A stretch of 64,000 nucleotides of DNA from Candidatus Paralachnospira caecorum (lineage in GTDB: Bacteria; Bacillota; Clostridia; Lachnospirales; Lachnospiraceae), in contig CAJFHG010000012.1 in assembly GCA_904379015.1 (NCBI GenBank), forward strand, positions 40 through 64,039, read 5' to 3'. The translations under genes were made by a program, and so were the position numbers. Below are positions 44,658-57,809 of the stretch, piece after piece (position 1 is the stretch's first letter; every line of letters starts with the position of its first letter). Below the pieces are notes generated by a model. It ran no database searches. It saw nothing but the letters and a program-made list of their open reading frames with translations, and was not told the origin of the DNA.

Positions 44658-45434
44658 TCAGGGCTCAGCCAGGATCAGTTCAATGCCCATTTCCCGGATA
44701 CCCGTTTTGTATTCCTGGGACAGATTGGTGTCTGATACGATGGTGCTGACCTGATCCAGAGGATAGCCGATGGAAAAGGCATTGGTGCCGAATTTTTCGC
44801 TCTGTGCCACCAGTATGGTCTGGTTGGCATGTTTCATCATAGCTTCCCGGATGCCGAAATCATCGATTCCATAATCTGACACGCCGAACTCAAAGGTAAT
44901 TCCGCCGGCGCCAATTACTGTTTTGTCAACGAATACGCTTCGTATTGTTTTCAGCGCCATGTCACCATACATATTTTTTTCGTTTGTATCCAGCTTTCCG
45001 CCCAGAACATAGATGTCAAAGTTGGTATCACTCAGCTCGTTGATCACAGCCAGGGAATTGGTCAGTACTGTCAGATAATGCAGCCGCTTCAGATGGCGGG
45101 CAACCTGCAGTACAGTGGTCCCGGCTGCCAGGAGAATGGTTTCGCCGTCATGGATCAGATCTGCCGCCGCTTTGCCGATGGCTGTCCGTTCGGCCAGTCC
45201 GCGGCTTCCGTCTTCGGTGCGGGGAATGGTGTAATCGGTCTTTCCGGGGGGTTTGACCAGGACTGCGCCCCCATAAATGCGTTTTACCAGATTCTTGTCC
45301 TGGAGCGTTTCCAGATCCCGTCTGGCGGTTTCATTGGATACGCCGAATTTGGATACAATATCGGTCATTTTGATAATGCCGCCGCTTTGTTTCAGCATTT
45401 CGATTATAATATCCTGCCGTTCTTGAGCCAACAT
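44658..45434 (-). CDS. DeoR/GlpR-family transcriptional regulator
   Basis: MLAQERQDII...FGVSNETARRDLETL...IYGGA...IGKAAA.LI.DGETI...VLTNSL. Confidence 0.92.
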   Translation of the reverse strand: MLAQERQDIIIEMLKQSGGIIKMTDIVSKFGVSNETARRDLETLQDKNLVKRIYGGAVLVKPPGKTDYTIPRTEDGSRGLAERTAIGKAAADLIHDGETILLAAGTTVLQVARHLKRLHYLTVLTNSLAVINELSDTNFDIYVLGGKLDTNEKNMYGDMALKTIRSVFVDKTVIGAGGITFEFGVSDYGIDDFGIREAMMKHANQTILVAQSEKFGTNAFSIGYPLDQVSTIVSDTNLSQEYKTGIREMGIELILAEP

Positions 45435-45586
45435 TCTGTTTGCCCTCCTGTTCCATATCTAAAAAAATTATAAGGGATTCCGAAATAAAAAGCAAGTTGG
45501 CAAAATAAATTTGAAGGAAAATGAGGAGAAATACAACTTCTTACAGGAAGAAACACACAAAAAACAAAACAAAAACCAAATAAAGG

Positions 45587-45615
45587 TTGACAAAATATGA
45601 AAATAAAATTATGAT
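45587..45615 (+). promoter_or_regulatory. Distal sigma70 promoter of the catabolic operon
   Basis: TTGACA, 17-bp spacer, TATGAT. Confidence 0.6.
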
Positions 45616-45772
45616 AAATACAATGAAAATCAAATAAAAGCGCTGGAAAAATCAGGGGATACAGTGCAGAAGCCAAAATCAAAGGAGATAAGTCCAAAAT
45701 AAAATGCTTATCTCCTTCTTTTTTTGGCGATAAGGGAAGAGAATTTTCTTCTATCTGATTTGTTATCTGGAA

Positions 45773-45875
45773 ATGTGGATGAACGAGTGAAAAACCACAT
45801 AATATTGAATCAAAACCACATTTAAATGTTGACATATACACATAAAACTGATATGATATCACTATCATTCCACAT
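45773..45875 (+). promoter_or_regulatory. Proximal promoter with repeated CCACAT boxes (candidate DeoR operator)
   Basis: TTGACA (45829-34), 17-bp spacer, TG-TATGAT (45852-57). AAAACCACAT at 45791 and 45812 (21-bp period); CCACAT at 45870; inverted ATGTGG at 45773. Confidence 0.6.
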
Positions 45876-45915
45876 TATTTGGGAAGAAATACAAAAAGGA
45901 TGGAGGTTGTTACAC

Positions 45916-47007
45916 ATGAGCGCAACAAAACTGTTTTCCCCCGGGCCGGTTATGGTGAAGGACAATGTCCGCAGATCGCTCCTGCACTATGATATTTGTC
46001 ACAGGAGCGGCGAATTTGAAGAGATGTTTGTTGATACACAGAAAAAAATCCTGAAACTTTTTAATGCGGATGATTCTTATTACAGTGTGATTGTATCCGG
46101 TTCCGGAACAGCGGCCAATGAAACAGTATTATCTTCTGTTTTTCGGGAAGGCGAAGGTGTGATGCTGATCCGGAACGGCATGTTCGGTGAGCGGCTTCTT
46201 GAGATTATTCATAAATACAACATTCCCCTTGTGGATTGCCCCTTTGACTGGGCGGAATATCCTGACCTGAAGATCATTGAACAGAAAATAGCGGAAAACC
46301 CGCGGATTAAAGTGGTGGCCATGGTATTTCATGAGACCTGTACCGGCATGATCAATCCGGTGGGGGAGGTCGGAGCGCTCTGCCGGAAATATGGAAAGCT
46401 TCTGTCGGTGGACTGCGTATCTGCCGCGGGAGGACAGAACATCGACGTGGTATCCAATCATATTGATATCGCCACTTCTGTGGGCGGCAAATGTGTGGGC
46501 GCATTTCCGGGGTCTGCATATGTATGCGCCAGAAAAGATCTGCTGGAAGGTCTGACGGCGGATCAGTGCAGAAATGTATATCTGAGCCTGTACAAACATT
46601 ATCAGAGTGCGGTCACGACTCATCAGACTCCCAATACGCCGAATGTTAATTTGTTCTGGCCGCTGAACCAGGCTTTGACCAATATTCTGGAGGATGAAAC
46701 ACTGGAGGGACGGATTTCCAGATATGAGCGCTGTGCCTCCATTATCCGCGAAGGAGTTGTGAAGCTGGGATGCCGCCTGCTTCTGGATGAACATATGTCG
46801 AGCACGGTGACAAGTGTGTTTCTGCCTGAGCATGTGGAAGTGCATCAGTTCCTGAAGGATATGGAGGACAGGGGATACACCTTCTATATCGGAAAGGGAG
46901 ATTATGCGAAGCAGGGGATGATCCAGATCGCCAATATGGGAGAGATCTATGAGCAGGACTGCCGCAATATGCTGGAGGTTTTCGGGCTTGTACTCAATCA
47001 GGATTGA
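45916..47007 (+). CDS. Class V PLP aminotransferase (PhnW/2-aminoethylphosphonate transaminase-like)
   Basis: LFSPGPV...DICHR...SGSGTAANE...HETCTG.INP...VDCVS...GGKC (PLP Lys)...TPNTP. Confidence 0.8.
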   Translation: MSATKLFSPGPVMVKDNVRRSLLHYDICHRSGEFEEMFVDTQKKILKLFNADDSYYSVIVSGSGTAANETVLSSVFREGEGVMLIRNGMFGERLLEIIHKYNIPLVDCPFDWAEYPDLKIIEQKIAENPRIKVVAMVFHETCTGMINPVGEVGALCRKYGKLLSVDCVSAAGGQNIDVVSNHIDIATSVGGKCVGAFPGSAYVCARKDLLEGLTADQCRNVYLSLYKHYQSAVTTHQTPNTPNVNLFWPLNQALTNILEDETLEGRISRYERCASIIREGVVKLGCRLLLDEHMSSTVTSVFLPEHVEVHQFLKDMEDRGYTFYIGKGDYAKQGMIQIANMGEIYEQDCRNMLEVFGLVLNQD

Positions 47008-47065
47008 TGGCGGTGAGCCATGATCATAGCAATGGCAGTGATGACTGAAAAAGGAGGTAGAGCGT

Positions 47066-48634
47066 ATGAAAAGAAAACTGGCGCTGATGTTGGTGCTGAT
47101 GATGCTGGTGACACTGTTTGGCGGGTGCGGAGGAAATGAGGAATCTGATGACGGCACTCAGGCCAGCCAGGGGGCAGAAGGGGGAGGTTCGGATTCTGAT
47201 ACACTGGTGATTCTTTCGTCAGGCGCCTTTCAGGGAGCCTGGGATCCCACAGGAAATACGATTCTTTCCAACAAACATCTGGAATGGAATGTGTTTGACC
47301 GGGCGATCCACAAGGATGCGGACGGGAATTATATTCCCGGCGTGTGCGAGAGCTGGGAGTATCAGGAGGACGGTTATACACTGCGTCTGAAGGTGAGAGA
47401 AGGCGTGAAATTCCATGACGGCAGCGATCTGACGGCAGAAGATGTGGCGGCGACCGTTGAGTGGACGACCCGTCCGGAATCAGCAAGAGTAAGCGACTGG
47501 GGATGTCAGTTCCAGGCAAATGTGATTGACGAGTATACCGTTGATATCTGGCCGGAAACAGAAACACCGGTGGCCAATCTGATCGATATGCTTGCGGCGG
47601 ACGCGATTCTGTCGGCGGATGACATTGAAAACGGCACACTGGATACAACCATGAACGGATGCGGCCCTTATAAATTCGTAAAATATGAAAATGAATGCTG
47701 CTATCTGGAAGCATTTGAGGATTACTGGGATACGGAAAACGCGGCTAAGATGCAGTACTGTGAATACCGGTATGTGTCGGAGCCGGCCACCCGTCTCGCG
47801 GCGCTGCAGACAGGAGAAGCGCATCTGATCGAACGTGTGGATATTGAACAGGTTGCTCAGATCGAAGCGGACGATTCCATTGATTATACAACGGTAGATG
47901 TGGACGAGCAGAAATATATGATCTTCAAATGTACTCAGGACGTGATGCAGGAAGAACTGGTTCGTCAGGCTATCAGCTATGCCATCGACCGGGAGACCAT
48001 TGTCAATGACATTATGGGAGGATATGCGGTTCTGGCAGATTCCTATGTGTCTCATGTGAACAATATGTATGCTCCTGCGGAGGGTATGCCGACCTATGAT
48101 CCGGAACGGGCGGCCGAGCTTCTGGCGGAAGCCGGTTATCCGGGCGGTGAAGGCCTGCCGACGATCACTTATGTCACATCGACAGGGTTCTATCCGAAAA
48201 CAAGAGAGTATGCGGAATACATCGTTTCCAATTTAAATGATATCGGCATTGATGTGGAGCTGACAGTGATGGAATCAGCAGCCTGGGAGACAGCGCTGTA
48301 TGAAGAAGATTCCTGCATGATGATTGACACTGGCTGGATGAATGTGGGCGGCGATGCCAATTTCATTCTCGGTTCTCATTACAGAAGCCCGGGACGGTGC
48401 AATTTCTCCAGCTATCCTGAGATTGACGCGGTTCTTGACAAAGAAAGCTCGCTGACAGATCCGGCAGAACGGCTGGAATGCATTCAGAATGAACTGTATC
48501 CGCTTCTGGTGGAAACCAATACCAATATGCCGCTGTTTGATTCTGTGCTGATCTATGGATATGTGAACAATCTGGAAGGACTGGAGATTCTTTCCACTTC
48601 CAATATTAATTTCGCGCAGCTGTCTTTGAACTGA
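47066..48634 (+). CDS. Opp/Dpp-family ABC substrate-binding lipoprotein
   Basis: Lipobox FGGC; LKVREGVKFHDG.DLTAEDV; GCGPYK; VRQAISYAIDRE. Confidence 0.9.
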   Translation: MKRKLALMLVLMMLVTLFGGCGGNEESDDGTQASQGAEGGGSDSDTLVILSSGAFQGAWDPTGNTILSNKHLEWNVFDRAIHKDADGNYIPGVCESWEYQEDGYTLRLKVREGVKFHDGSDLTAEDVAATVEWTTRPESARVSDWGCQFQANVIDEYTVDIWPETETPVANLIDMLAADAILSADDIENGTLDTTMNGCGPYKFVKYENECCYLEAFEDYWDTENAAKMQYCEYRYVSEPATRLAALQTGEAHLIERVDIEQVAQIEADDSIDYTTVDVDEQKYMIFKCTQDVMQEELVRQAISYAIDRETIVNDIMGGYAVLADSYVSHVNNMYAPAEGMPTYDPERAAELLAEAGYPGGEGLPTITYVTSTGFYPKTREYAEYIVSNLNDIGIDVELTVMESAAWETALYEEDSCMMIDTGWMNVGGDANFILGSHYRSPGRCNFSSYPEIDAVLDKESSLTDPAERLECIQNELYPLLVETNTNMPLFDSVLIYGYVNNLEGLEILSTSNINFAQLSLN

Positions 48635-48768
48635 TCACTTGATCAACCTGAATGGCATTATGATTGCCCGGTATATGCCTGTACCGGGCAATTTGCTAAA
48701 ACAGGGGAAGTTTTTTGCAGGTTCCCGGAGTCTTCCGGGCAATCTTAACAGAAAGGAAGTCAGAGCCT

Positions 48769-49698
48769 ATGCTCACAACGATTATAAAGCGGCTTTTGCA
48801 GGGACTTCTGGTTATCGTGATTGTGATGGTCGTGACCTTTGTTCTGCTCAGGCTGATTCCAGGCGATCCGGCCCGGACCATGGCGGGCAGTGCCGGACAG
48901 GAAGTCATTGATTCCATACGTGAGGAAATGGGGCTGAATGATCCCATTCCCATACAGTTTGTAAACTACATAAAAAATATTTTCAGGGGAGATCTCGGAT
49001 ACTCTTATTTCAACAGATCTGATGTGGCAAGCGTGATCGCCGGATCTTATAAAGCAACTCTGGTGATGTTCGCGCTGGCGCTCCCGTCGGCTATTATATT
49101 GGGACTGATACTGGGGATATTGGCAGCCGTATTTCAAAATAAATGGCCGGATAAGCTGATCAGCTCTCTTTCAGTCCTGTTTCAGTCGATGCCCAATTAC
49201 TGGGTCGCGATCATGCTGATCCAGATCGTTTCGGTACGGTTTAATCTCCTTCCCTCCACCGGATATTCCGGGGTCAAAAGCGCCATTCTGCCGGCGATCG
49301 TGCTGGGACTTCCTGTAACAGGAACGTTCGCGCGGAATGTGAGGGTCAATATGCTGGGCAGTATGCAGCAGAATTTCGCGAAGGCGGCCAGGGCCAGAGG
49401 CGTTCCCCGGTTTAAGGTGCTGATCGGGTATTCTTTCCGGAATATTCTGGTGCCTTTTCTGACCCTTGTCGGTTCTCAGCTGGGATTTATGGTAGGAAAC
49501 TGTCTGCTGATTGAAAATATTTTCGGATATCCGGGAATCGGACTTCAGACACTGAATGCGATCCTGCGCAGAGACTATTATCTGGTACAGGGACTGGTGG
49601 TTATGTTTTCCATTATTTTCATATTGATCAATACCCTGATCGACATTTCCTATCTGTATCTGGATCCCCGTATCCGCAAAGCACAGGGAGGGTTGTGA
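48769..49698 (+). CDS. Opp/Dpp ABC permease (B-type)
   Basis: RLIPGDPA...GDLGYS...AKAARARG...IENIFGYPGIG. Confidence 0.9.
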   Translation: MLTTIIKRLLQGLLVIVIVMVVTFVLLRLIPGDPARTMAGSAGQEVIDSIREEMGLNDPIPIQFVNYIKNIFRGDLGYSYFNRSDVASVIAGSYKATLVMFALALPSAIILGLILGILAAVFQNKWPDKLISSLSVLFQSMPNYWVAIMLIQIVSVRFNLLPSTGYSGVKSAILPAIVLGLPVTGTFARNVRVNMLGSMQQNFAKAARARGVPRFKVLIGYSFRNILVPFLTLVGSQLGFMVGNCLLIENIFGYPGIGLQTLNAILRRDYYLVQGLVVMFSIIFILINTLIDISYLYLDPRIRKAQGGL

Positions 49699-49699
49699 T

Positions 49700-50551
49700 A
49701 TGGCAGAAAAAATGAAACGGTTCGGAAAATTCTGCAGAAAAAATCCGTCTTTTGCGATCGGATTGGTCATTATGGTGATCATTCTGATCCTCGCTGTTTT
49801 CGCGGAATGGATCGCGCCCAATGATCCCTATCTGAATAATCCCAAGATCAGTTTAATGAAGCCGTTTACGGACTGGCAGTATCCTCTGGGTACAGATTAT
49901 ATCGGAAGGTGCCTGCTGTCCCGCATGATCTATGGGATCCGCACTTCCATGATCATCTGCCTGACGGCGGTGGCGGGCGCGGTGCTCCTGGGAGTAGGAG
50001 TGGGTATCATATCCGGCATGTCCTGTCCGGGAAAGACAGACAGCGTGCTGATGCGGATCGTAGATGTGCAGATGGGATATCCCTTTATTGTTCTTGTGAT
50101 TATTCTGATCTCCCTGTTTGGACAGTCGATTCCCAGTCTGGCGCTGGTGCTGGCACTGTCATTCTGGGCTCCTTATGCCAGAAACATCAGAGGGTCTGTC
50201 ATGATCCAGAAGGATGCCGATTACATTGCGGCAGCCAGACTGATGGGAGCGGGAAAAGGGAGGATTGCCACAAAGTATATCGGACGGGAAGTGATTCCGG
50301 GAATCATTCCTGTGGTGCCGATGGATCTTTCCAGTGCGATCATCATTGAATCGCTGCTCAGCTATATGGGACTGGGGGTCCAGCCACCGATCATCTCTCT
50401 GGGAAGCGTCATGGGCGACGGAAAAAATTATATTTCGACCAACTGGTGGATCACGGCAATGCCCGGATTTCTGATCGTTATTATGACAATCGCGCTGACA
50501 CTGATGGGAGATGTGCTGCACAGACAGTTCGATCCCAAGCTGAGGAACTGA
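49700..50551 (+). CDS. Opp/Dpp ABC permease (C-type)
   Basis: PLGTDYIGRCLLSR...YIAAARLMGA...ESLLSYMGLG. Confidence 0.9.
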   Translation: MAEKMKRFGKFCRKNPSFAIGLVIMVIILILAVFAEWIAPNDPYLNNPKISLMKPFTDWQYPLGTDYIGRCLLSRMIYGIRTSMIICLTAVAGAVLLGVGVGIISGMSCPGKTDSVLMRIVDVQMGYPFIVLVIILISLFGQSIPSLALVLALSFWAPYARNIRGSVMIQKDADYIAAARLMGAGKGRIATKYIGREVIPGIIPVVPMDLSSAIIIESLLSYMGLGVQPPIISLGSVMGDGKNYISTNWWITAMPGFLIVIMTIALTLMGDVLHRQFDPKLRN

Positions 50552-50567
50552 CGGAGGGAGGCATATT

Positions 50568-51602
50568 ATGGAGAAACTCAATCGTGCCGCGGAAGAGGAA
50601 ATGCTTCTGGAGGTGAGAGATCTGCACACTTATTTCCATATGCCTGGGGGTACAGTCATAAAGGCAGTGGAAGGTGTGAATTTTACCCTGAAAAAGGGGA
50701 AGGTCCTGGGGATCATCGGAGAGTCCGGTTCAGGAAAAAGTGTTACCTCCCGCGCGATCATGCAGATCGTGGACAAGCCGGGAAAGATCGAGAGCGGAGA
50801 GGTGATCTTCAAAGGAGAGGATCTGCTGAAGAAGAGCGGAAAAGAGATGGAGGCGCTGCGGGGATCCCAGATTTCTCTGATCTTTCAGGATCCGAATACT
50901 TCATTTAATCCTTATATGACCATCGGAAAACAGCTGGAGCAGGCTTTCCGTGTCCACAATAAAAAAGCCGGAAAGGAAGAGTGCCGTCAGGCGGTAAAAG
51001 ACGCGCTGAAGCTGGTGGGTCTGAACAACTGGGAGGAAATCATAAAATGCTATCCCTGTCAGTTTTCGGCCGGCTTCCGGCAGAGGATTTTCATTGCCAT
51101 GGCGATGATCTTCAAGCCGGATCTTCTGATCGCGGATGAACCGACGACCAGCCTGGGCATTACCATTCAGGCGGAAATCATTCAGGCGCTGGATGAGATC
51201 CGGAAACAGGTGGGCAATTCTGTGATCATCATTACCCATGATTTTGGTGTGGTATCCCAGTTCGCCGATGATATTTTTGTCATGTACGCGGGCAGATGCG
51301 TGGAATATTCGCCGAAAAAGGCGCTTCTGATCGAGCCGCGCCATCCGTATACGGTGGGGCTTCTGCGGTCCGTACCGCTCCTGGAAGCAAGAAAGACAAA
51401 AAGGCTGAAATCCATTCCGAGTTTTCCTCCGGATATGGCGAATCCGCCGGAGGGATGTCCTTTTGCGGAACGGTGTGAATGGGCGCAGGAAAAATGTTTC
51501 AGGGAGGCTCCGGAACTCCGCTCTGTGGGAGATGGGCGTCTGGCGGCCTGCCATTATCCGCTGATGGATTACAAGACGGCTGATGACACGCGTTTGGAAT
51601 GA
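50568..51602 (+). CDS. Opp/Dpp ABC ATPase (D-type)
   Basis: GESGSGKS, FSAGFRQR, LIADEPTT, C-terminal GCPFAERC. Confidence 0.9.
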   Translation: MEKLNRAAEEEMLLEVRDLHTYFHMPGGTVIKAVEGVNFTLKKGKVLGIIGESGSGKSVTSRAIMQIVDKPGKIESGEVIFKGEDLLKKSGKEMEALRGSQISLIFQDPNTSFNPYMTIGKQLEQAFRVHNKKAGKEECRQAVKDALKLVGLNNWEEIIKCYPCQFSAGFRQRIFIAMAMIFKPDLLIADEPTTSLGITIQAEIIQALDEIRKQVGNSVIIITHDFGVVSQFADDIFVMYAGRCVEYSPKKALLIEPRHPYTVGLLRSVPLLEARKTKRLKSIPSFPPDMANPPEGCPFAERCEWAQEKCFREAPELRSVGDGRLAACHYPLMDYKTADDTRLE

Positions 51603-51613
51603 GGTGAATAATC

Positions 51614-52606
51614 ATGGCAGAACCAATTCTTAAAGTTGTGAATCTGAAAAAGCATTATCCGATCCGCCGGGGAATGTTCAACAAACAGGTTGGAAACCGG
51701 CTGGTAGTGGATGGCGTGGACATTCAGATCAATCCCGGAGAGACGGTTGCGCTGGTGGGAGAGTCCGGATGCGGGAAAACAGTTCTTCTGCGGGTGCTCC
51801 TTGGCATTGAAGAGGCCACAGAAGGGGAGATCTATTATTATGGAAAGGATATCACAAAGCTCAGCAAACAGGAAAAGAAAGAGATGCGCAAAAAGGTCCA
51901 GATGATCTTTCAGGATTCCATGTCCGCGCTTCATCCCAGATTTTCCATCATGGAGTCGCTGGCGGAACCGCTGATCCTGAACGGTATGAAGGATAAGGAA
52001 CAGATTGAGAAAATTGTCGTGGAAACTCTGGAGAAAGTGGGGCTGGACGCGAAATACCGGTTCAGAAATCCGGAATCCCTGAGCGGCGGTCAAAGGCAGC
52101 GGGTGGTGATCGCGAGGGCCCTGGTGGAACGGCCGGAGCTGATCCTGGCTGACGAACCCATTTCTGCTCTGGATGTGTCTCTGCAGGCCCAGGTGCTGAA
52201 TCTTTTAATGGATCTGCGGGATGAGTATAAACTGTCCATGCTTTTTGTGGCTCATGATCTGGCTGTGGTGCGCCAGATCGCAGATTATATCGTGATCATG
52301 TACGCGGGACATACGCTGGAGGCAGCGCCGGCGGCGGAAATTTACAGCAATGCCTGCCATCCTTATACGCAGGTGCTTCTGGAATCGGCCCCCAGTATTT
52401 CAAAGGGAATCCGGGATGAAGAATTCCGTCTGAACCTGAAAATCGGAGACACGCCGGATCCGGCTCATCTTCCTTCCGGGTGCGTATTCCATACCCGCTG
52501 TGTTTATGCCGATGAAAACTGCTGCAGGAAGGTGCCGGAGCGGCACAAAATTTCACCGGGGCATTATGCCTGCTGCGACAAATATATGGAAATAGGAAGG
52601 TCATAA
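51614..52606 (+). CDS. Opp/Dpp ABC ATPase (F-type)
   Basis: GESGCGKT, LSGGQRQR, LADEPISALD, HPYTQ..GCVFHTRC. Confidence 0.9.
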   Translation: MAEPILKVVNLKKHYPIRRGMFNKQVGNRLVVDGVDIQINPGETVALVGESGCGKTVLLRVLLGIEEATEGEIYYYGKDITKLSKQEKKEMRKKVQMIFQDSMSALHPRFSIMESLAEPLILNGMKDKEQIEKIVVETLEKVGLDAKYRFRNPESLSGGQRQRVVIARALVERPELILADEPISALDVSLQAQVLNLLMDLRDEYKLSMLFVAHDLAVVRQIADYIVIMYAGHTLEAAPAAEIYSNACHPYTQVLLESAPSISKGIRDEEFRLNLKIGDTPDPAHLPSGCVFHTRCVYADENCCRKVPERHKISPGHYACCDKYMEIGRS

Positions 52607-52633
52607 GCAGAGCCGCAAAAGGAGGTGGGAAGT

Positions 52634-54097
52634 GTGAGAAGGGAATATGTGATCGCCTACGACCTTGGGACAAGCGGAGTAAAGGCAGTTCTGACGGATC
52701 TGAAAGGACATTTCATTGACGCGGCTACGGAAGAGTATTCGCTGGTCACGCCGAAGGCCGGATGGGCAGAGCAGGATCCGGAAGTCTACTGGCGGCAGGT
52801 GGGAAAGGTAACCAGGAAGGTGCTGGAGAAGTCGGGGTACCGGCCGGAGGATGCCTGCGGAATCGCTTTCGGGACACAGTGGAAAGGGATCATTCCGGTC
52901 GATGCGGATGGAACGGTTCTGCATCACAGCATAATCTGGCTGGACGCCAGAGCAGGGAAACAGGCGGAAGCTCTGAACCGATACTTCGGGAAAGAACTCT
53001 TCTGCGCGGCGGATTACTGGCCGAAGGTCATGTGGTTCAGAGAAAACTGCCCCGATCTTTATGAAAGGGCAGTGACGATTTTTGAGGCCAATTCGTTTCT
53101 CAAATGGAAAGCGACGGGGAAAGCGGCTGTGGATGTGACCAATCATTTTACCCGTTCCTTTGATCAGGAATTACAGAGGTTTTATGACGCGTATCTGGAG
53201 GCGGCGGGACTGGACGCGGAAAAATTTCCTCCGCTGGTGAAGCCTGAAGATCTGGTGGGGCATGTTACGGAGAGGGCGGCCCGTGAAATGGGGCTGGTGC
53301 CGGGGATTCCTGTATTTGGCGGATGCGGAGATATTCCGGCTATCACGATCGGATCGGGAAGCACAGACCTTGGGCAGATGCATGCTTATTTTGGATCATC
53401 GGGGTGGCTGGGCCTGGTAAAACGGCATTCGTCAGAAGATCTTTATATTTCGCCTTTTGATGAGAAGCGGGATATTGCCCTGTTTGCCATGCAGTCGATC
53501 GGTCTGTCTCTCAACTGGACAGTGAGCCAGATGTATCGCAGAGAACAGGAGGAAATGGGCGGAGAGGTATTTTCTTATTTGAATCAGGAGCTTCTGCAGA
53601 TCCCGCCGGGAAGTGAAGGGGTTCTGGCAACGCCCTGGTTTTTCGGAGAAAGACCGCCTCATTTATCACCGTCTGCCCGGGGAAATTTTCTGAATTTGAA
53701 CTCCTGCCATGACCGCAGGCATATGGTGCGGGCACTGATGGAGGGAGTCTGCTATACGCTGCGGATGAATGTAGAGGATTACTGGAAGGAATCAGGCACG
53801 CGGCCGGACCGTATCCACGCGGTGGGAGGCGGTTCCCTCAGCGACGTATGGATGCAGGCGCTGGCAGATATTCTGGATATTCCTGTCAGCGTGCCGGGGA
53901 GTCCGCGCCATGCCGGAGCCATCGGGACTGCTTACTGCGCGCTGATCGGGCTGGGATGCTGTGAGAACTTCAGGGAGGCTGCAGGGCAGATTGAGATCGA
54001 GCGGAGTTTTGAACCGCGTCCGGGAGCGGTAAAAATTTATCATGACGCATATCAAGTGTTCAGCGGCTTGTATGAGCTTTTGGAGCCGCTTTATTAA
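52634..54097 (+). CDS. FGGY-family carbohydrate kinase (xylulokinase-like)
   Basis: IAYDLGTSGVKAV, WAEQDP, IIWLDAR, GSSGW, EGV.Y, VGGGS.SDVW.Q. Confidence 0.88.
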   Translation: MRREYVIAYDLGTSGVKAVLTDLKGHFIDAATEEYSLVTPKAGWAEQDPEVYWRQVGKVTRKVLEKSGYRPEDACGIAFGTQWKGIIPVDADGTVLHHSIIWLDARAGKQAEALNRYFGKELFCAADYWPKVMWFRENCPDLYERAVTIFEANSFLKWKATGKAAVDVTNHFTRSFDQELQRFYDAYLEAAGLDAEKFPPLVKPEDLVGHVTERAAREMGLVPGIPVFGGCGDIPAITIGSGSTDLGQMHAYFGSSGWLGLVKRHSSEDLYISPFDEKRDIALFAMQSIGLSLNWTVSQMYRREQEEMGGEVFSYLNQELLQIPPGSEGVLATPWFFGERPPHLSPSARGNFLNLNSCHDRRHMVRALMEGVCYTLRMNVEDYWKESGTRPDRIHAVGGGSLSDVWMQALADILDIPVSVPGSPRHAGAIGTAYCALIGLGCCENFREAAGQIEIERSFEPRPGAVKIYHDAYQVFSGLYELLEPLY

Positions 54098-54117
54098 AAG
54101 TCAGGGGGTATAAAGCA

Positions 54118-55668
54118 GTGAAGGCGCCAGGTACAATCAGAAAGGGTTCAGAAAATGAAATCAGGTATCGCATTCTTGTCTGTGAATTTCACCAGGAGAC
54201 CAACACGTTTAATCCGCTGAACAGCGGAATCGAGCAGTTTGAAGCGATCCGTTATCTGAAAGATGAAGCGTTTTTTGATGTGTGCAGGGAACTGCCCTGC
54301 GCAGTTCATGGAATGATCGATGCGATAGAAGAGGAAGGGTGCACTGCGGTGCCCACGATCGATCTGTGTGCCCAGTCCTGCGGGCGGGTCCGGGACGACG
54401 TGTTTGAACTGCTGCTGCGGAGTATGGAGGATTATATACAGGCAGCGGGAGAGTTTGATGCCGTGTTTGCCTCACTTCACGGAGCGACCTCAACAGAGAG
54501 TCAAGATGACGCCTGCGGTGTCTTTGTGGAAAAACTGCGCGCGCTGATCGGGGAGGAAAAGGTGATAGCAGCGTCTTTTGACCTGCACGCGAATATTACA
54601 GAAAGGATGCTGAAGAATGCGGATATCATCTGCGGTTATCAGACATATCCTCATGTGGATTTTTATGAGACGGGATATCGGGCGGCAAAGCTTGGGCTCA
54701 GAAAGCTGCGGAAAGAACCGGCAGCGGTGGCCTCTACTCTGATTCCCATGATGGTGCCGCCGGTGGGCTATACATCGCTTCTTCCGCCTTTTAAGGATGT
54801 GATCGATTATGGGAAATCTCTGGTGGAAGAAGGAAAGCTGCTGGATTTTACACTGTTTCAGGTACAGCCATGGCTGGATATCAGCGAGATCGCGAGCTGC
54901 ATCATTGCCATTGGAACAGAGGAAGAACAGGCGGAGCAATATGCGCTGGAACTGGGAAAACGTCTGTTTGAAAACCGGGAAGGGTACTGGCCGGAGCTTA
55001 CGACCATTGACGCGGTCATAGACAGGGCTGAAATGCCGGAATCCCAGAAGCCGGTCATCCTGGTGGATTCAGCCGATTCTCCCAACGGAGGAGCCGTCGG
55101 GGACAGCATTGCGGCGGCCATGCGTATTTATGAGCGGAAATCGAAGATCAGGGCAGGGATGTTTGTAAAGGATCCGGAAGTAGTCCGGCAGGCTTTTGAA
55201 GTCGGTGTCGGAGGAACGGCCCGGTTTTCCATAGGAGCCAAATTTACGCCCGGAATGCCGGGACCGCTGGTGGCGGATGCCCGCGTCAGATCGCTCCATG
55301 ACGGGGTATTCTGTCAGGAGGGACCGGCAGGCAGAGGAATCTGCAATAATATTGGCCGGACGGCGGTGATTTCTGTGGGCAATATGGACATTATGGTCTG
55401 CGAAGAGCCGGCATCGTCTGGAGATCCTCAGCTTCTGCGTCATTTCGGAATTGAACCCAGCATGTATGACATGATCGTGGTAAAGGCCAATACTTCTTAT
55501 CGTGTGCCCTACAGCCATTTTGCCACAGAATTTTATGAGACCGATACGCCTGGCGCGGGCGCTGCCAATCTGAAGCGGTTTGACTGGAAGCATATACCGG
55601 AGAGTATGTATCCCTTTGATGAGCTGGAAGGCTATGAAGTAGAGCCGGCCAGGATACGCCGGAGGTGA
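54118..55668 (+). CDS. M81-family (MlrC-like) metallo-amidohydrolase
   Basis: HQETNTF, SLHGA, SFDLHANIT, YQTYPHVD, VDSADSPNGG, VVKA motifs. Confidence 0.85.
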   Translation: MKAPGTIRKGSENEIRYRILVCEFHQETNTFNPLNSGIEQFEAIRYLKDEAFFDVCRELPCAVHGMIDAIEEEGCTAVPTIDLCAQSCGRVRDDVFELLLRSMEDYIQAAGEFDAVFASLHGATSTESQDDACGVFVEKLRALIGEEKVIAASFDLHANITERMLKNADIICGYQTYPHVDFYETGYRAAKLGLRKLRKEPAAVASTLIPMMVPPVGYTSLLPPFKDVIDYGKSLVEEGKLLDFTLFQVQPWLDISEIASCIIAIGTEEEQAEQYALELGKRLFENREGYWPELTTIDAVIDRAEMPESQKPVILVDSADSPNGGAVGDSIAAAMRIYERKSKIRAGMFVKDPEVVRQAFEVGVGGTARFSIGAKFTPGMPGPLVADARVRSLHDGVFCQEGPAGRGICNNIGRTAVISVGNMDIMVCEEPASSGDPQLLRHFGIEPSMYDMIVVKANTSYRVPYSHFATEFYETDTPGAGAANLKRFDWKHIPESMYPFDELEGYEVEPARIRRR

Positions 55669-55677
55669 GGGGAAATC

Positions 55678-57099
55678 ATGGATGACAGGAGCAGGAGTAT
55701 GCAGTATTTCCGGGAGCACAGAAAAGAAATATTGACAGATCTGGACAGCCTCGTCAGAATTCCCAGTGTGGCGGCTGATTCCGGAGTGCCGGGTATGCCC
55801 TACGGCAGGGAAGCCAGGATGGTTCTTGCTGAGGCGGAAAAAATCGCCGGCAGGCTGGGGTTTTTTACGGTCATCCACGATGATGCGTGCCTGACGGCAG
55901 AACCTGCAGCGGGGAGAGATGCAAAGCTGTGCCTTCTGGCCCATCTTGATGTGGTGGAGGCGGGAGAAGGATGGACGAAGCCGCCTTATGAACTGACCGA
56001 GGAGAACGGAAAAATATTTGGCCGGGGAATCGTGGATAACAAAGGCCCTGCGGTGATGCTGCTTCATGCCATGAAAGCGGCAATGGAAATTTGTCCGGAC
56101 CTGCCGTACAGCCCCAGGATCTGGCTCGGAACCGCGGAGGAAATCGGAAGTCCCGATCTGAAGATTTATCAGAAGAAAACAAAACTGCCTCCGCTCTGCC
56201 TGACACCGGACAGTCTGGAACCGGTCGTGATCGGGGAGTGCGCGAAGCACAGGCCGGAATTTTATGTCCGCTGGAAACAGAACAGTACGGTTCCGAGCGT
56301 ATCTGCTCTGGAAGGAGGACGGGTGCGCAATGCGGTTCCCGGTTTTGCCCGGGCCCGGGTTGACGGAATCGATCAGAAAATCGCAGAGGATGCGGCAGCG
56401 CAGGCACAGAGACAGTACGGAGCGGGCTTTACTGTCGAGAAAACGGCGGACGGGGAAGGCGTCGATATCCGGACGGTCGGACGCGGAGCCCATATCGGGT
56501 GGCCGGAGAAGGGCGTCAATGCGCAGACTGCGCTGATTGGAATGCTGGCCCGGCTTCCGCTGGCGGACTGTCCTCAGACAAGGGCTGTGCAGGCGCTTGA
56601 CAGGCTTTTTCCTCATGGTGATCTGACTGGAAGAAGGCTGGGGCTTGATCTTCATGATGACACCGGGCGCGGCAGCAGCGTAAATTTCACCGTCTGTCAT
56701 ATGACAGAAACAGAAATCCGGTGTAAGCTGGATGCGCGGGGACCGCTGAACGCTTCGCCGGCAAATTTTCAGAAGATAATCGACCATGCGCTGGAAGCGG
56801 CAGGATTTCAGGTCGTTCCGTCCGAGATGGAGCCGGCCCATTATACGCATGAGACTGTTCCCCTGGTGCAGACAGTTAAAAAGGTTTATGAACAGTATCT
56901 TGGATGTCCGGTAACGTGCCGGACCAGTCTTGGCGCCAGTTATGCTTATTATATTGCCGGAGCAGTTTCCACAGGCCCGGCTTTTCCCGGCACAGATACC
57001 AGGCTTCACAGGACAGACGAGTTCATGTATATTTCAGATCTGATGCGTCTTGGCGAGATTTATACAGAACTCATCTTAAAACTGTGTGACCGGGACTGA
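55678..57099 (+). CDS. M20-family (PepV/Sapep-like) dipeptidase/amidohydrolase
   Basis: LVRIPSV, AHLDVV, GRGIVDNKGP, AEEIGS, LHRTDE. Confidence 0.85.
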   Translation: MDDRSRSMQYFREHRKEILTDLDSLVRIPSVAADSGVPGMPYGREARMVLAEAEKIAGRLGFFTVIHDDACLTAEPAAGRDAKLCLLAHLDVVEAGEGWTKPPYELTEENGKIFGRGIVDNKGPAVMLLHAMKAAMEICPDLPYSPRIWLGTAEEIGSPDLKIYQKKTKLPPLCLTPDSLEPVVIGECAKHRPEFYVRWKQNSTVPSVSALEGGRVRNAVPGFARARVDGIDQKIAEDAAAQAQRQYGAGFTVEKTADGEGVDIRTVGRGAHIGWPEKGVNAQTALIGMLARLPLADCPQTRAVQALDRLFPHGDLTGRRLGLDLHDDTGRGSSVNFTVCHMTETEIRCKLDARGPLNASPANFQKIIDHALEAAGFQVVPSEMEPAHYTHETVPLVQTVKKVYEQYLGCPVTCRTSLGASYAYYIAGAVSTGPAFPGTDTRLHRTDEFMYISDLMRLGEIYTELILKLCDRD

Positions 57100-57181: not shown

Positions 57182-57472
57182 ATGAGAAAGAAAACATATC
57201 GTTTTACAGCAGCATGGCTGTGCCTGCTCCTGCTTTTCTGTTTTGGCGCGGCGGCCTGCAGCAGCAGGGAAAAATCGGCGCTGATCGAGGGGGATTATAC
57301 AGAAATTGATATGGAAAATGAGGGCGTCACGGAGCTGTATACAGAGGAAAATACGGAACCTCTGACAGAGGAGCATACAGAAGAGCCGGAAGACGCATCT
57401 GATTTGTCCGGGAAAGAGGAAAGCACCGGTCTGCCGGAGGATTTTACCATGTGGAGCGAAGACGCGGAATGA
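57182..57472 (+). CDS. Small acidic lipoprotein, hypothetical
   Basis: Basic N-terminus, hydrophobic stretch, AAAC lipobox, Glu-rich body; GGAG RBS. Confidence 0.6.
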   Translation: MRKKTYRFTAAWLCLLLLFCFGAAACSSREKSALIEGDYTEIDMENEGVTELYTEENTEPLTEEHTEEPEDASDLSGKEESTGLPEDFTMWSEDAE

Positions 57473-57529
57473 CAGGGGAGAAAAACGGAAAAGCAGAATT
57501 CAGATTCTGAGGAGAACGAACGGAATAAT

Positions 57530-57578
57530 GGGCGTGTCGCATGCGGGAGGCATTCTCCTGTGTGACACGCTCTTTTTT
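57530..57578 (+). terminator. Probable intrinsic terminator
   Basis: GCGTGTCGCA...TGTGACACGC followed by TCTTTTTT. Confidence 0.5.
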
Positions 57579-57809
57579 CGCCGGAAATATTCTGATTTGT
57601 GGGATTGATCCGGCTGGTCCGTGTGCAAAAGTCCTGGACTTTGAAAAACGATTCTGATAGTATTAACTACATATTGTACAGATCGGGACATTTTCGGACG
57701 ATGCGCGGCCGGCTCGCGGGAAGGCAGGTCTGCGCAGGACAGACAGGGGCCGCGCGGTGCCGGACAAAAGGCGTTCTGACGGGACTGATAAAAGGGAGAG
57801 AAGTATGAC

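Follow-up and report, generated by a model that had tools for sequence, protein, structure and literature searches.

Gene content and organisation of the operon

A 64,000-nucleotide stretch of the Candidatus Paralachnospira caecorum genome (contig CAJFHG010000012.1; hereafter the window) contains a ten-gene region encoding a PhnW-like aminotransferase, an Opp-type importer, an FGGY-family sugar kinase, an M81-family hydrolase and an M20-family peptidase next to a DeoR-family regulator (Table 1). An earlier reading of the sequence alone (the sequence-only reading) had listed an aminotransferase, an Opp/Dpp importer and the FGGY, M81 and M20 genes divergent from deoR; all of them were recovered by Pfam and NCBIfam scans and are tightly packed in the open reading frame (ORF) listing. 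The deoR gene lies on the minus strand, divergent from nine plus-strand genes. The gaps on either side of the gene for the solute-binding protein (SBP) are 58 and 80 nt long, and those further downstream measure 1-20 nt, including the 9-20 nt that separate the FGGY kinase, M81 and M20 genes (M20 starts 9 nt after M81). Because the gaps are short and a consensus terminator scan found no convincing internal terminator within the operon, the nine genes appear to form a single operon divergent from deoR. An Rfam scan of the region gave no match. The host genome has a size of 2.59 Mb and is 95.7% complete. We tentatively, and with somewhat less than even confidence, interpret the region as a catabolic operon under DeoR repression whose substrate would be an amino-alcohol bound in a small amide conjugate.

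Table 1. Genes and control elements of the operon region (positions in the window).
Feature	Position	Strand	Evidence
DeoR-family repressor	44658-45434	-	HTH_DeoR and DeoRC Pfam, 142.9 and 56.6 bits
Operon promoter and candidate DeoR operator	45773-45876	+	Promoter scan, repeats
Class-V PLP enzyme, PhnW-like, distinct family	45916-47007	+	Aminotran_5 (PF00266), 73 bits
Family-5 (Opp/Dpp cluster) solute-binding lipoprotein	47066-48634	+	SBP_bac_5, 258.6 bits; lipobox LFGGC
Two Opp-type permeases	48715-49698; 49700-50551	+	BPD_transp_1 with BPD_transp_1_N and OppC_N
Two Opp-type ATPases	50568-51602; 51614-52606	+	ABC_tran and oligo_HPY
FGGY kinase (FGGY_A)	52625-54097	+	FGGY_N, 142 bits; FGGY_C, 107 bits
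M81 (MlrC-family) Zn-hydrolase, predicted pathway amidase	54118-55668	+	DUF1485, 238.5 bits; MlrC_C, 138.3 bits
M20 Sapep/PepV-type dipeptidase	55678-57099	+	TIGR01887, 264 bits (cut-off 208)

Regulator and promoter

The closest NCBIfam models for the DeoR protein are SrlR, AgaR and GlpR, each matched below its cut-off. Regulators of this family normally sense sugar phosphates. A promoter of the form TTGACA-17-TATGAT with a TG element was identified at 45829-45857 by promoter scan and agrees with the consensus at 11 of 12 positions. The listed aminotransferase ORF (start at 45826) begins within its own promoter; the gene itself is present as originally described, with its true start at the ATG at 45916, which is preceded by GGAGG. 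Repeats of the AACCACAT/ATGTGG type flank the promoter. The window holds four exact AACCACAT copies, two of which sit 21 bp apart immediately upstream of the -35 box, and additional inverted and degenerate copies are found nearby. No enrichment of AACCACAT was detected across the window, the copies being clustered locally only. ACCACA-type repeats around the -35 box were also found in the orthologous promoters of loci L055, L025, L071 and L030. We infer that the repeats constitute a candidate DeoR operator.

A PhnW-like enzyme without the anion-binding arginine

The pyridoxal 5'-phosphate (PLP) enzyme belongs to Aminotran_5, and the PLP lysine K192 (SVGGKC) and D166 are invariant in its family. 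Models of the 2-aminoethylphosphonate (AEP) transaminase PhnW are the best family and structure matches, but the enzyme stays below both cut-offs, with 274.2 bits against TIGR03301 (cut-off 360.8) and 210.9 bits against TIGR02326 (cut-off 400.8). In residue alignments with four structures of PhnW and with a class-V enzyme from Pyrococcus, Gln337 lies opposite the conserved arginine (PhnW Arg340, 1M32 numbering) of 1M32, 6PD1, 9KK8 and 2DR1. Glutamine occupies this position in all 67 family members with a readable motif, and the family spans four phyla at 60-86% identity. Arg340 of PhnW is said to be the phosphonate (anion)-binding residue. As it is replaced by glutamine, the substrate is probably neither an alpha-amino acid nor AEP; the loss of a carboxylate/phosphonate-binding arginine fits a substrate without an alpha-anion.

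True AEP catabolism, in which the PLP enzyme would function as PhnW, would agree with the best family and structure matches. We nevertheless regard it as extremely improbable, given the scores below both PhnW cut-offs and the glutamine in place of Arg340. In addition, a PhnX search of the whole genome found none, with a best match of 40.5 bits (cut-off 220 bits), and an NPP-type phosphodiesterase gene found beside the PLP enzyme in relatives (see below) has no match to the PhnA model. The sequence-only reading had recorded the lack of PhnX and had left room for a true AEP transaminase working with a phnX elsewhere; the genome-wide search bears out the former and, together with the missing Arg340, speaks against the latter. 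Compared with PhnW (1M32, 9KK8), the enzyme shares the class-V fold and the conserved PLP lysine and aspartate, and it differs in the substitution of Arg340, the lack of a PhnX partner and an obligate kinase neighbour.

Co-conservation in two genomic contexts

The genome collection contains 140 loci with the PLP enzyme, and the best 80 of these, from Bacillota, Chloroflexota, Spirochaetota and Synergistota, were compared by tblastn with the window proteins and all-against-all clustering of the locus ORFs. Two contexts emerged. Type A, which includes the window and comprises about 16 of the 80 loci, from Bacillota and Chloroflexota, combines DeoR, the PLP enzyme, the FGGY kinase of the window operon (FGGY_A) and M81. 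About 16 loci encode a DeoR orthologue (45-76% identical) next to the PLP enzyme, and the FGGY_A and M81 orthologues of this type are 39-65% and 39-80% identical, respectively. The importer is interchangeable: seven loci encode an Opp-type system, the others a UgpB-like/CUT1 ABC or an MFS transporter. In type B (about 55 of the 80 loci), the PLP enzyme is adjacent to a paralogue of glycerol kinase and accompanied by an AraC regulator, an APC permease and a small membrane protein.

The PLP enzymes of the two contexts are 60-83% identical, and in a maximum-likelihood tree the contexts are interleaved; well-supported branches require at least five switches between them. Furthermore, Oscillibacter valericigenes and a Lachnospiraceae metagenome-assembled genome (MAG) each encode both modules. 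Cultured bacteria that carry these genes include O. valericigenes (Sjm18-20), Anaerotignum neopropionicum DSM 3847 and Megasphaera hominis NSJ-59. Because the contexts are intermixed in the tree and coexist in these genomes, the PLP enzyme almost certainly performs one shared reaction in type A and type B, as judged from comparative genomics.

The operon is an accessory trait: within the genus, 3 of 17 genomes carry M81, and across the class M81 occurs in 11 of 401 genomes and the PLP enzyme in 7 of 399. The recurrence of the gene combination across phyla places it beyond chance, and the core stays together even where the importer is of a non-peptide type, so the idea of a co-conserved catabolic unit holds. 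DeoR, the PLP enzyme, FGGY_A and M81 form this core; the M20 gene, which had been counted as part of the same unit, is an accessory of one sub-variant (see below). In some lineages, the neighbourhood of the PLP enzyme includes glycerol dehydrogenase and a gap-pgk-tpi-eno operon, which provide weak supporting context for the pathway proposed below.

Several additional genes were observed at these loci. A cytoplasmic NPP-type phosphodiesterase (PF01663, without an NCBIfam model) recurs beside kinase, M81 and PLP-enzyme genes (L034:8601-9926, L027:6242-7573, L035:3511-4824, L071:1667-3049 and L091:7221-8519), a hint that phosphodiester-linked compounds serve as substrates of some variants. A group-II PLP decarboxylase (L034:4375-5835) is encoded in a Sphaerochaetaceae MAG upstream of the genes for the glycerol-kinase paralogue, the phosphodiesterase and the PLP enzyme, and may produce the amine from an amino acid in situ. 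In distant taxa, a HisC-like aminotransferase (L039:11184-12296) and HisJ-family PHP phosphatases (L036:7978-8874 and L074:11219-12043) adjoin the PLP enzyme. HisC-like and HisJ families act on amino-alcohol phosphates, and their presence could be a coincidence or part of the same chemistry.

Substrate clues from the type-B kinase and the FngABC paralogues

The type-B kinase is approximately 50-60% identical to true glycerol kinases and scores over the GlpK cut-off. All 59 type-B kinases, however, carry glycine at the position of the glycerol-binding Arg83 and aspartate or asparagine at that of Thr80, while E84, W103, Y135, D245 and F270 are retained. The canonical NQRET motif is kept by the GlpK of the Ca. 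P. caecorum genome and by 24 of the other top-scoring GlpK loci of the class with a readable motif. The Gly83 kinases are annotated as 'glycerol kinase GlpK' (L007-L086, e.g. L073:4448-5947, together with L155:9346-10839 and L156:9079-10575) and never sit with GlpF. Their C3-sized but more acidic pocket suggests a cationic glycerol analogue as substrate, and they are probably mis-annotated amino-alcohol kinases. In L155, L156, L157 and L017, the Gly83 kinase or the PLP enzyme has a EutH-family (ethanolamine-type) permease (459-468 bits) as a neighbour, and the APC permease of type B shows a weak resemblance to ethanolamine permeases.

In place of the PLP enzyme, two genomes (L155 and L156) encode a flavoprotein set of the FngABC type (three genes: DAO+BFD, Pyr_redox_2 and DUF1667) after the Gly83 kinase. 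FngABC of Pyrococcus furiosus is an electron-bifurcating oxidoreductase that converts glycerol-3-phosphate (G3P) into dihydroxyacetone phosphate (DHAP) (PMC13689815). The FngA paralogue, FngA', represents a distinct subfamily whose members are mostly 75-85% identical to each other (58% for L156) and 35-42% identical to the FngA proteins encoded beside canonical GlpKs. Six Clostridia genomes of several families (L110:4996-10503, L091:3169-11524 and L119-L122) contain DeoR-FngA'B'C' operons that end with M81; one such operon also contains FGGY_A and the NPP-type phosphodiesterase. Thus, two upstream modules (the Gly83 kinase, or FGGY_A with M81) occur in combination with two downstream enzymes, FngA'BC and the PLP enzyme, and the most economical reading of these combinations is a common hub metabolite that would be an amino analogue of G3P. 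Serinol phosphate is favoured since transamination at C2 and a C2 oxidation of the G3P-dehydrogenase type would both yield DHAP.

The type-B module resembles the glycerol pathway formed by GlpK and FngABC in P. furiosus (PF2004-2007; PMC13689815) in that it uses paralogues of both components, with DHAP as the proposed end product. It differs in a more acidic kinase without Arg83, in permeases of the amino-alcohol/amino-acid type instead of GlpF, and in that the PLP enzyme can replace the flavoprotein.

The association of M81 with FngA'BC allows for another interpretation, in which the conjugate derives from the cell envelope as a glycerol ester or a phosphodiester, such as aminoacyl-glycerol(-phosphate) from teichoic acids or aminoacyl-phosphatidylglycerol. 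M81 would then free glycerol(-phosphate), and the amino compound that is released, not the C3 backbone, would be the substrate of the PLP enzyme. We consider such a substrate improbable, and equally so the division of labour between the enzymes that it entails. It would account for M81 within operons of the G3P oxidoreductase type in six genomes, as well as for the NPP-type phosphodiesterase and the UgpB-like binding proteins in several loci. However, it leaves the module of permease, Gly83 kinase and PLP enzyme unexplained, since one imported molecule has to serve both enzymes, and the PLP enzyme lacks the carboxylate-binding arginine required for amino acids.

Importer, FGGY_A kinase and hydrolases

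With a family-5 SBP, two permeases and two ATPases carrying the oligo_HPY tail, the operon encodes a complete importer of the Opp/Dpp type. The SBP reaches no equivalog model. Its closest solved structures, all with low scores, are 5U4O, GsiB/YliB and the agrocinopine-binding AccA; the ligands of these nearest structures are glutathione, agrocinopine or nickel complexes. SBP orthologues are 48-83% identical in seven genome loci and 57-70% identical in the metagenome contigs L111 and L112. The permeases are co-conserved with the SBP, and the ATPase orthologues are 63-87% identical.

FGGY_A is a member of the FGGY family in which the aspartate of GGCGD aligns with the catalytic aspartate of GlpK. 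It is xylulokinase-like and below every equivalog cut-off (279 bits against the XylB model TIGR01312, cut-off 380), with xylulokinase, gluconokinase and autoinducer-2 (AI-2) kinase as its nearest models. M81 directly follows the FGGY_A gene in the operon and in about 20 further loci, whether or not the PLP enzyme is present. The identity of FGGY_A to the PLP-linked glycerol-kinase paralogue is 24%, and its pocket motif reads TQWKG as opposed to NQGET.

This divergence leaves some room for a pathway of the same logic with a larger amine, a C4-C6 amino-polyol or amino sugar that would be converted to a pentulose or hexulose phosphate, in which case the C3 substrate would hold for the module with the GlpK paralogue only. 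We regard this possibility as unlikely, though it is the rival that we take most seriously. In addition to the relationships of FGGY_A, sugar-type ABC or MFS importers and xylose-isomerase-like TIM-barrel genes in some type-A loci are in line with it, as is the proximity of DeoR to SrlR and AgaR. On the other hand, the PLP enzymes of both contexts are up to 83% identical and interleaved, which points to one substrate; M81 and the Gly83 kinase share FngA' as a partner, which is derived from a C3 (G3P) enzyme; and no additional sugar-phosphate enzymes are conserved in the operon.

The M81 protein keeps all five residues of the MlrC zinc site with identical spacing (E27, H121, D155, H157 and H179, corresponding to E56, H150, D184, H186 and H208 of MlrC), and these are invariant in 25 homologues. 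Its AlphaFold model (pLDDT 87) superimposes with TM-scores of 0.88 on 3IUU and 0.80 on MlrC (7YLQ), and a Foldseek search with the model returned M81 structures only and no informative remote fold. Judged from the zinc-site residues and the model, the protein is a bona fide and catalytically intact member of its family. MlrC cuts an amide at a D-Glu residue that keeps a free alpha-carboxylate in microcystin. The protein shares its fold and the five zinc-site residues with MlrC, an enzyme that hydrolyses an amide beside an anionic group. The M81 protein is, however, not a microcystinase: it reaches 149 bits against NF041767 (cut-off 999), the operon contains no mlr genes, and its genomic context consists of kinase and G3P-type genes instead of mlrABD. 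The MlrC zinc site has been characterised, and MlrC itself cleaves a peptide (PMC12474180); full-text literature searches gave no description of any M81 function beyond MlrC. The statement that M81 includes a de-N-acetylase of chitin oxidation, made in the sequence-only reading, is incorrect, as OngB of that pathway is an amidohydrolase of the D-aminoacylase type (PMC12017989).

The M20 protein belongs to the TIGR01887 subfamily (Table 1) and misses the PepV equivalog (255 bits against 435); PepV (1LFW) and Sapep (3KHX) are its nearest structures. The gene was found in none of the 80 genome loci and in neither of two carriers of the operon from the same genus. It is present with 53% identity in L111 and L112, which share the gene order SBP, permease, permease, ATPase, ATPase, FGGY, M81, (LarA), M20. 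As it is conserved in these two contigs only, M20 appears to be an accessory of an Opp-type sub-variant and not a core component.

LarA-family genes, which encode nickel-pincer 2-hydroxyacid racemases or epimerases, follow FGGY-M81 in L111 (8448-9716) and L118 (G033:C51), which are unrelated loci, a hint that M81 can set free a 2-hydroxy acid.

An ordinary operon for oligopeptide uptake and degradation by Opp, M81 and M20, with the kinase and the aminotransferase merely adjacent, appears very improbable. The importer is of the Opp type, M81 is a peptidase family whose member MlrC cleaves a peptide (PMC12474180), and the dipeptidase is PepV-like. Nevertheless, kinase, M81, PLP enzyme and DeoR occur together even with MFS or sugar-type ABC importers and without M20. 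Moreover, gaps of 9-20 nt would place the genes in one transcript, and DeoR normally senses sugar phosphates.

Proposed pathway

Based on these observations, we propose, as a possible scheme that we would rate at somewhat less than an even chance, that an N-acyl or peptidyl amino-glycerol is imported, phosphorylated, de-acylated by M81 and transaminated to DHAP. The amine would most likely be 2-amino-1,3-propanediol (serinol) or its 1-amino isomer. The Opp-type ABC system would import the amide conjugate, whose acyl part is probably peptidyl or aminoacyl in this organism because a dipeptidase is attached. FGGY_A would phosphorylate a free primary hydroxyl of the neutral, still-acylated compound, and the resulting phosphate ester would be the likely DeoR effector. 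A kinase acting on a neutral N-acyl compound would explain why a kinase other than the amine-adapted Gly83 kinase is used, and a phosphorylated N-acyl compound would explain the control by a repressor of the sugar-phosphate type. By analogy with MlrC, M81 would then cleave the amide beside the new anionic group to an amino-alcohol phosphate and an acid, which M20 could split further if it is a dipeptide. Finally, the PhnW-like PLP enzyme would convert the amino-alcohol phosphate to DHAP, which would enter glycolysis. In the second and more common module, the free amine would enter via an APC/EutH-type permease and be phosphorylated by the Arg83-less glycerol-kinase paralogue before reaching the same PLP enzyme, for which the FngABC paralogue could stand in.

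Among the substrates suggested by the sequence-only reading, the N-acylated amino-polyol fits best; a glycated peptide would present a secondary amine, and instead of an amino sugar the compound is probably a C3 amino-alcohol. The proposed order of transamination followed by phosphorylation of a ketose is less likely than the sequence of kinase, amidase and PLP enzyme, because the acidified, Arg83-less pocket of the paired glycerol-kinase paralogue is expected for a cationic amine and not for a ketose. The view that the gene combination had not been described still stands, since full-text literature searches yielded no description of this gene set or of serinol catabolism.

The PLP enzyme might instead be a phospho-lyase that acts after the kinase and removes ammonia and phosphate from a 1,2-amino-alcohol phosphate, for example by turning serinol phosphate into hydroxyacetone, inorganic phosphate and ammonia. 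Kinase/phospho-lyase pairs are known for ethanolamine, aminopropanol and hydroxylysine (EC 4.2.3.2; AGXT2L1/2). The PLP enzyme has lost the arginine that binds keto acids and anions, it is strictly paired with a kinase, and GldA, a glycerol/1,2-propanediol dehydrogenase that reduces hydroxyacetone, is encoded adjacent to it in four loci. The known phospho-lyases, however, are class III and not class V enzymes, and a flavoprotein of the G3P-dehydrogenase type, which keeps the phosphate, can replace the PLP enzyme; furthermore, glycolytic genes are neighbours in some lineages and the ATP spent by the kinase would be wasted. We therefore judge a phospho-lyase to be rather improbable, and keep it as a live rival because keto-acid binding without the arginine is hard to explain.

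Several points weigh against the conversion of a C3 amide conjugate to DHAP by a transaminase. The substrate is deduced from comparative genomics, and since the kinase of the window is xylulokinase-like and not glycerol-kinase-like, a C4-C6 amino-polyol is possible for type A. Without the conserved arginine, the keto-acid co-substrate is hard to place in the PLP enzyme, which might not be a transaminase. No convincing strict signature of charge-changing residues separates FngA' from canonical FngA, and FngA' may simply oxidise G3P. In addition, the M81 genes in FngA'BC operons without a kinase or importer are unexplained by an imported amide conjugate, and the NPP-type phosphodiesterase, HisJ-type phosphatases, HisC-like aminotransferase and LarA that recur nearby are not accounted for. 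To our knowledge, peptidyl- or aminoacyl-serinol conjugates of a size suited to Opp systems are not known as natural products, and we know of no documentation of serinol abundance in the gut except for N-acyl lipids.

Other candidate substrates were considered and rejected or judged less likely. Amadori compounds or glycated peptides contain a secondary amine that a transaminase cannot use, and FrlB/FrlD-type genes are not present. Beta-alanine, pantothenate or carnosine, which the PepV link would suggest, do not match a PLP enzyme without the carboxylate-binding arginine and would leave the kinase partner unexplained. A route via a kinase for free L-serine and a PSAT-like enzyme is less likely, as Glu84 is kept beside the would-be carboxylate and the carboxylate-binding arginine is absent. 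Conversion of ethanolamine via phosphoethanolamine to phosphoglycolaldehyde would yield no central metabolite, and a C3 pocket is retained in the kinase. The enzymes of the D-cysteinolate pathway are unrelated.

Comparison with known systems

The use of amino sugars by the Nag and Aga systems, which involves NagE or NagK, NagA and NagB and, in the latter, the DeoR-type regulator AgaR, follows a comparable logic of import, phosphorylation, metal-dependent de-N-acylation of the phosphorylated compound and removal of the amine to yield a keto-sugar phosphate. The control by a DeoR-family repressor is shared with the Aga system. In the operon, by contrast, an FGGY kinase takes the place of ROK or PTS proteins, M81 that of the NagA amidohydrolase and a class-V PLP enzyme that of the deaminases NagB or AgaS, and its substrate backbone is probably an acyclic C3 unit and not a hexosamine.

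The agrocinopine acc operon of Agrobacterium comprises AccR (DeoR family), the Opp-like importer AccABCDE, AccF and AccG. As in the operon described here, a DeoR-type repressor governs an Opp-type importer, there of a non-peptide sugar conjugate, followed by intracellular hydrolases, and AccA is among the closest solved relatives of the window SBP. The acc substrate, however, is a sugar phosphodiester that is degraded by a phosphodiesterase and a phosphatase, and a kinase, M81 and a PLP enzyme are lacking. Every catalytic step of the operon uses an enzyme family other than those in the Nag/Aga or acc systems.

In Campylobacter jejuni, serinol phosphate is reportedly formed from DHAP by transamination. 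Glucuronic acid in the capsule of this species is amidated with serinol, and in vitro (S)-serinol phosphate and ATP are used to form the amide before the phosphate is removed by Cj1435 (PMC13276843, PMC12409886). This branch resembles our proposal in that serinol phosphate and an acid-serinol amide are intermediates in a gut bacterium; it differs in being biosynthetic, and hence opposite in direction, with an amidoligase and a phosphatase unrelated to the enzymes of the operon. Literature searches found no description of a catabolic counterpart.

Implications

Extending the proposal beyond the window is speculative and, in our estimation, unlikely to hold in full. In such a scheme, anaerobes of at least four phyla would have a full 'amino-glycerol' branch of central metabolism, not described so far, as a counterpart to the glycerol pathway. 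It would consist of a serinol kinase (GlpK without Arg83) and either a serinol-phosphate:DHAP aminotransferase (PhnW/AGT lineage, arginine lost) or an FngABC-derived deaminating and possibly electron-bifurcating dehydrogenase, with feeders of FGGY_A, M81 and variable importers that salvage serinol amides. The feeder substrates could include uronamides of capsules and O-antigens or breakdown products of host-active N-acyl serinol lipids, and the window operon would represent the feeder for peptide conjugates. If the pathway proposed for the operon is correct, it would provide the first physiological role for M81 enzymes not acting on microcystin and a new FGGY specificity, and would show how gut and rumen anaerobes use amino-alcohols besides ethanolamine. 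N-acyl serinols are made by gut bacteria (PMC13012048), which would offer a source of substrate, and are host-active gut lipids, so that a microbial serinol sink could bear on host signalling. The M81 hydrolases are annotated as 'M81 metallopeptidase' and the PLP enzymes as '2-aminoethylphosphonate transaminase', and the PLP enzymes and Gly83 kinases would be mis-annotated as well; for the latter two, Arg340Gln and Arg83Gly, respectively, offer clean diagnostic substitutions.

Additional elements flanking the operon

Between deoR and the operon promoter, a second near-consensus promoter (TTGACA-17-TATGAT, 45587-45615, plus strand) was identified. It is followed after approximately 70 nt by a strong hairpin with a U-run (around 45672-45728; -32 kcal/mol, z = -3.8). 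The element as a whole (45587-45735) has no Rfam match, and no counterpart was seen in the orthologous L055 and L012 spacers; the element could represent a small RNA of about 110 nt or a relic terminator. Directly after M20, a small plus-strand ORF (57183-57473) encodes a protein with a lipoprotein-like signal (…LLFCFGAAAC) and an acidic tail, and is followed by a possible terminator at approximately 57530-57585.

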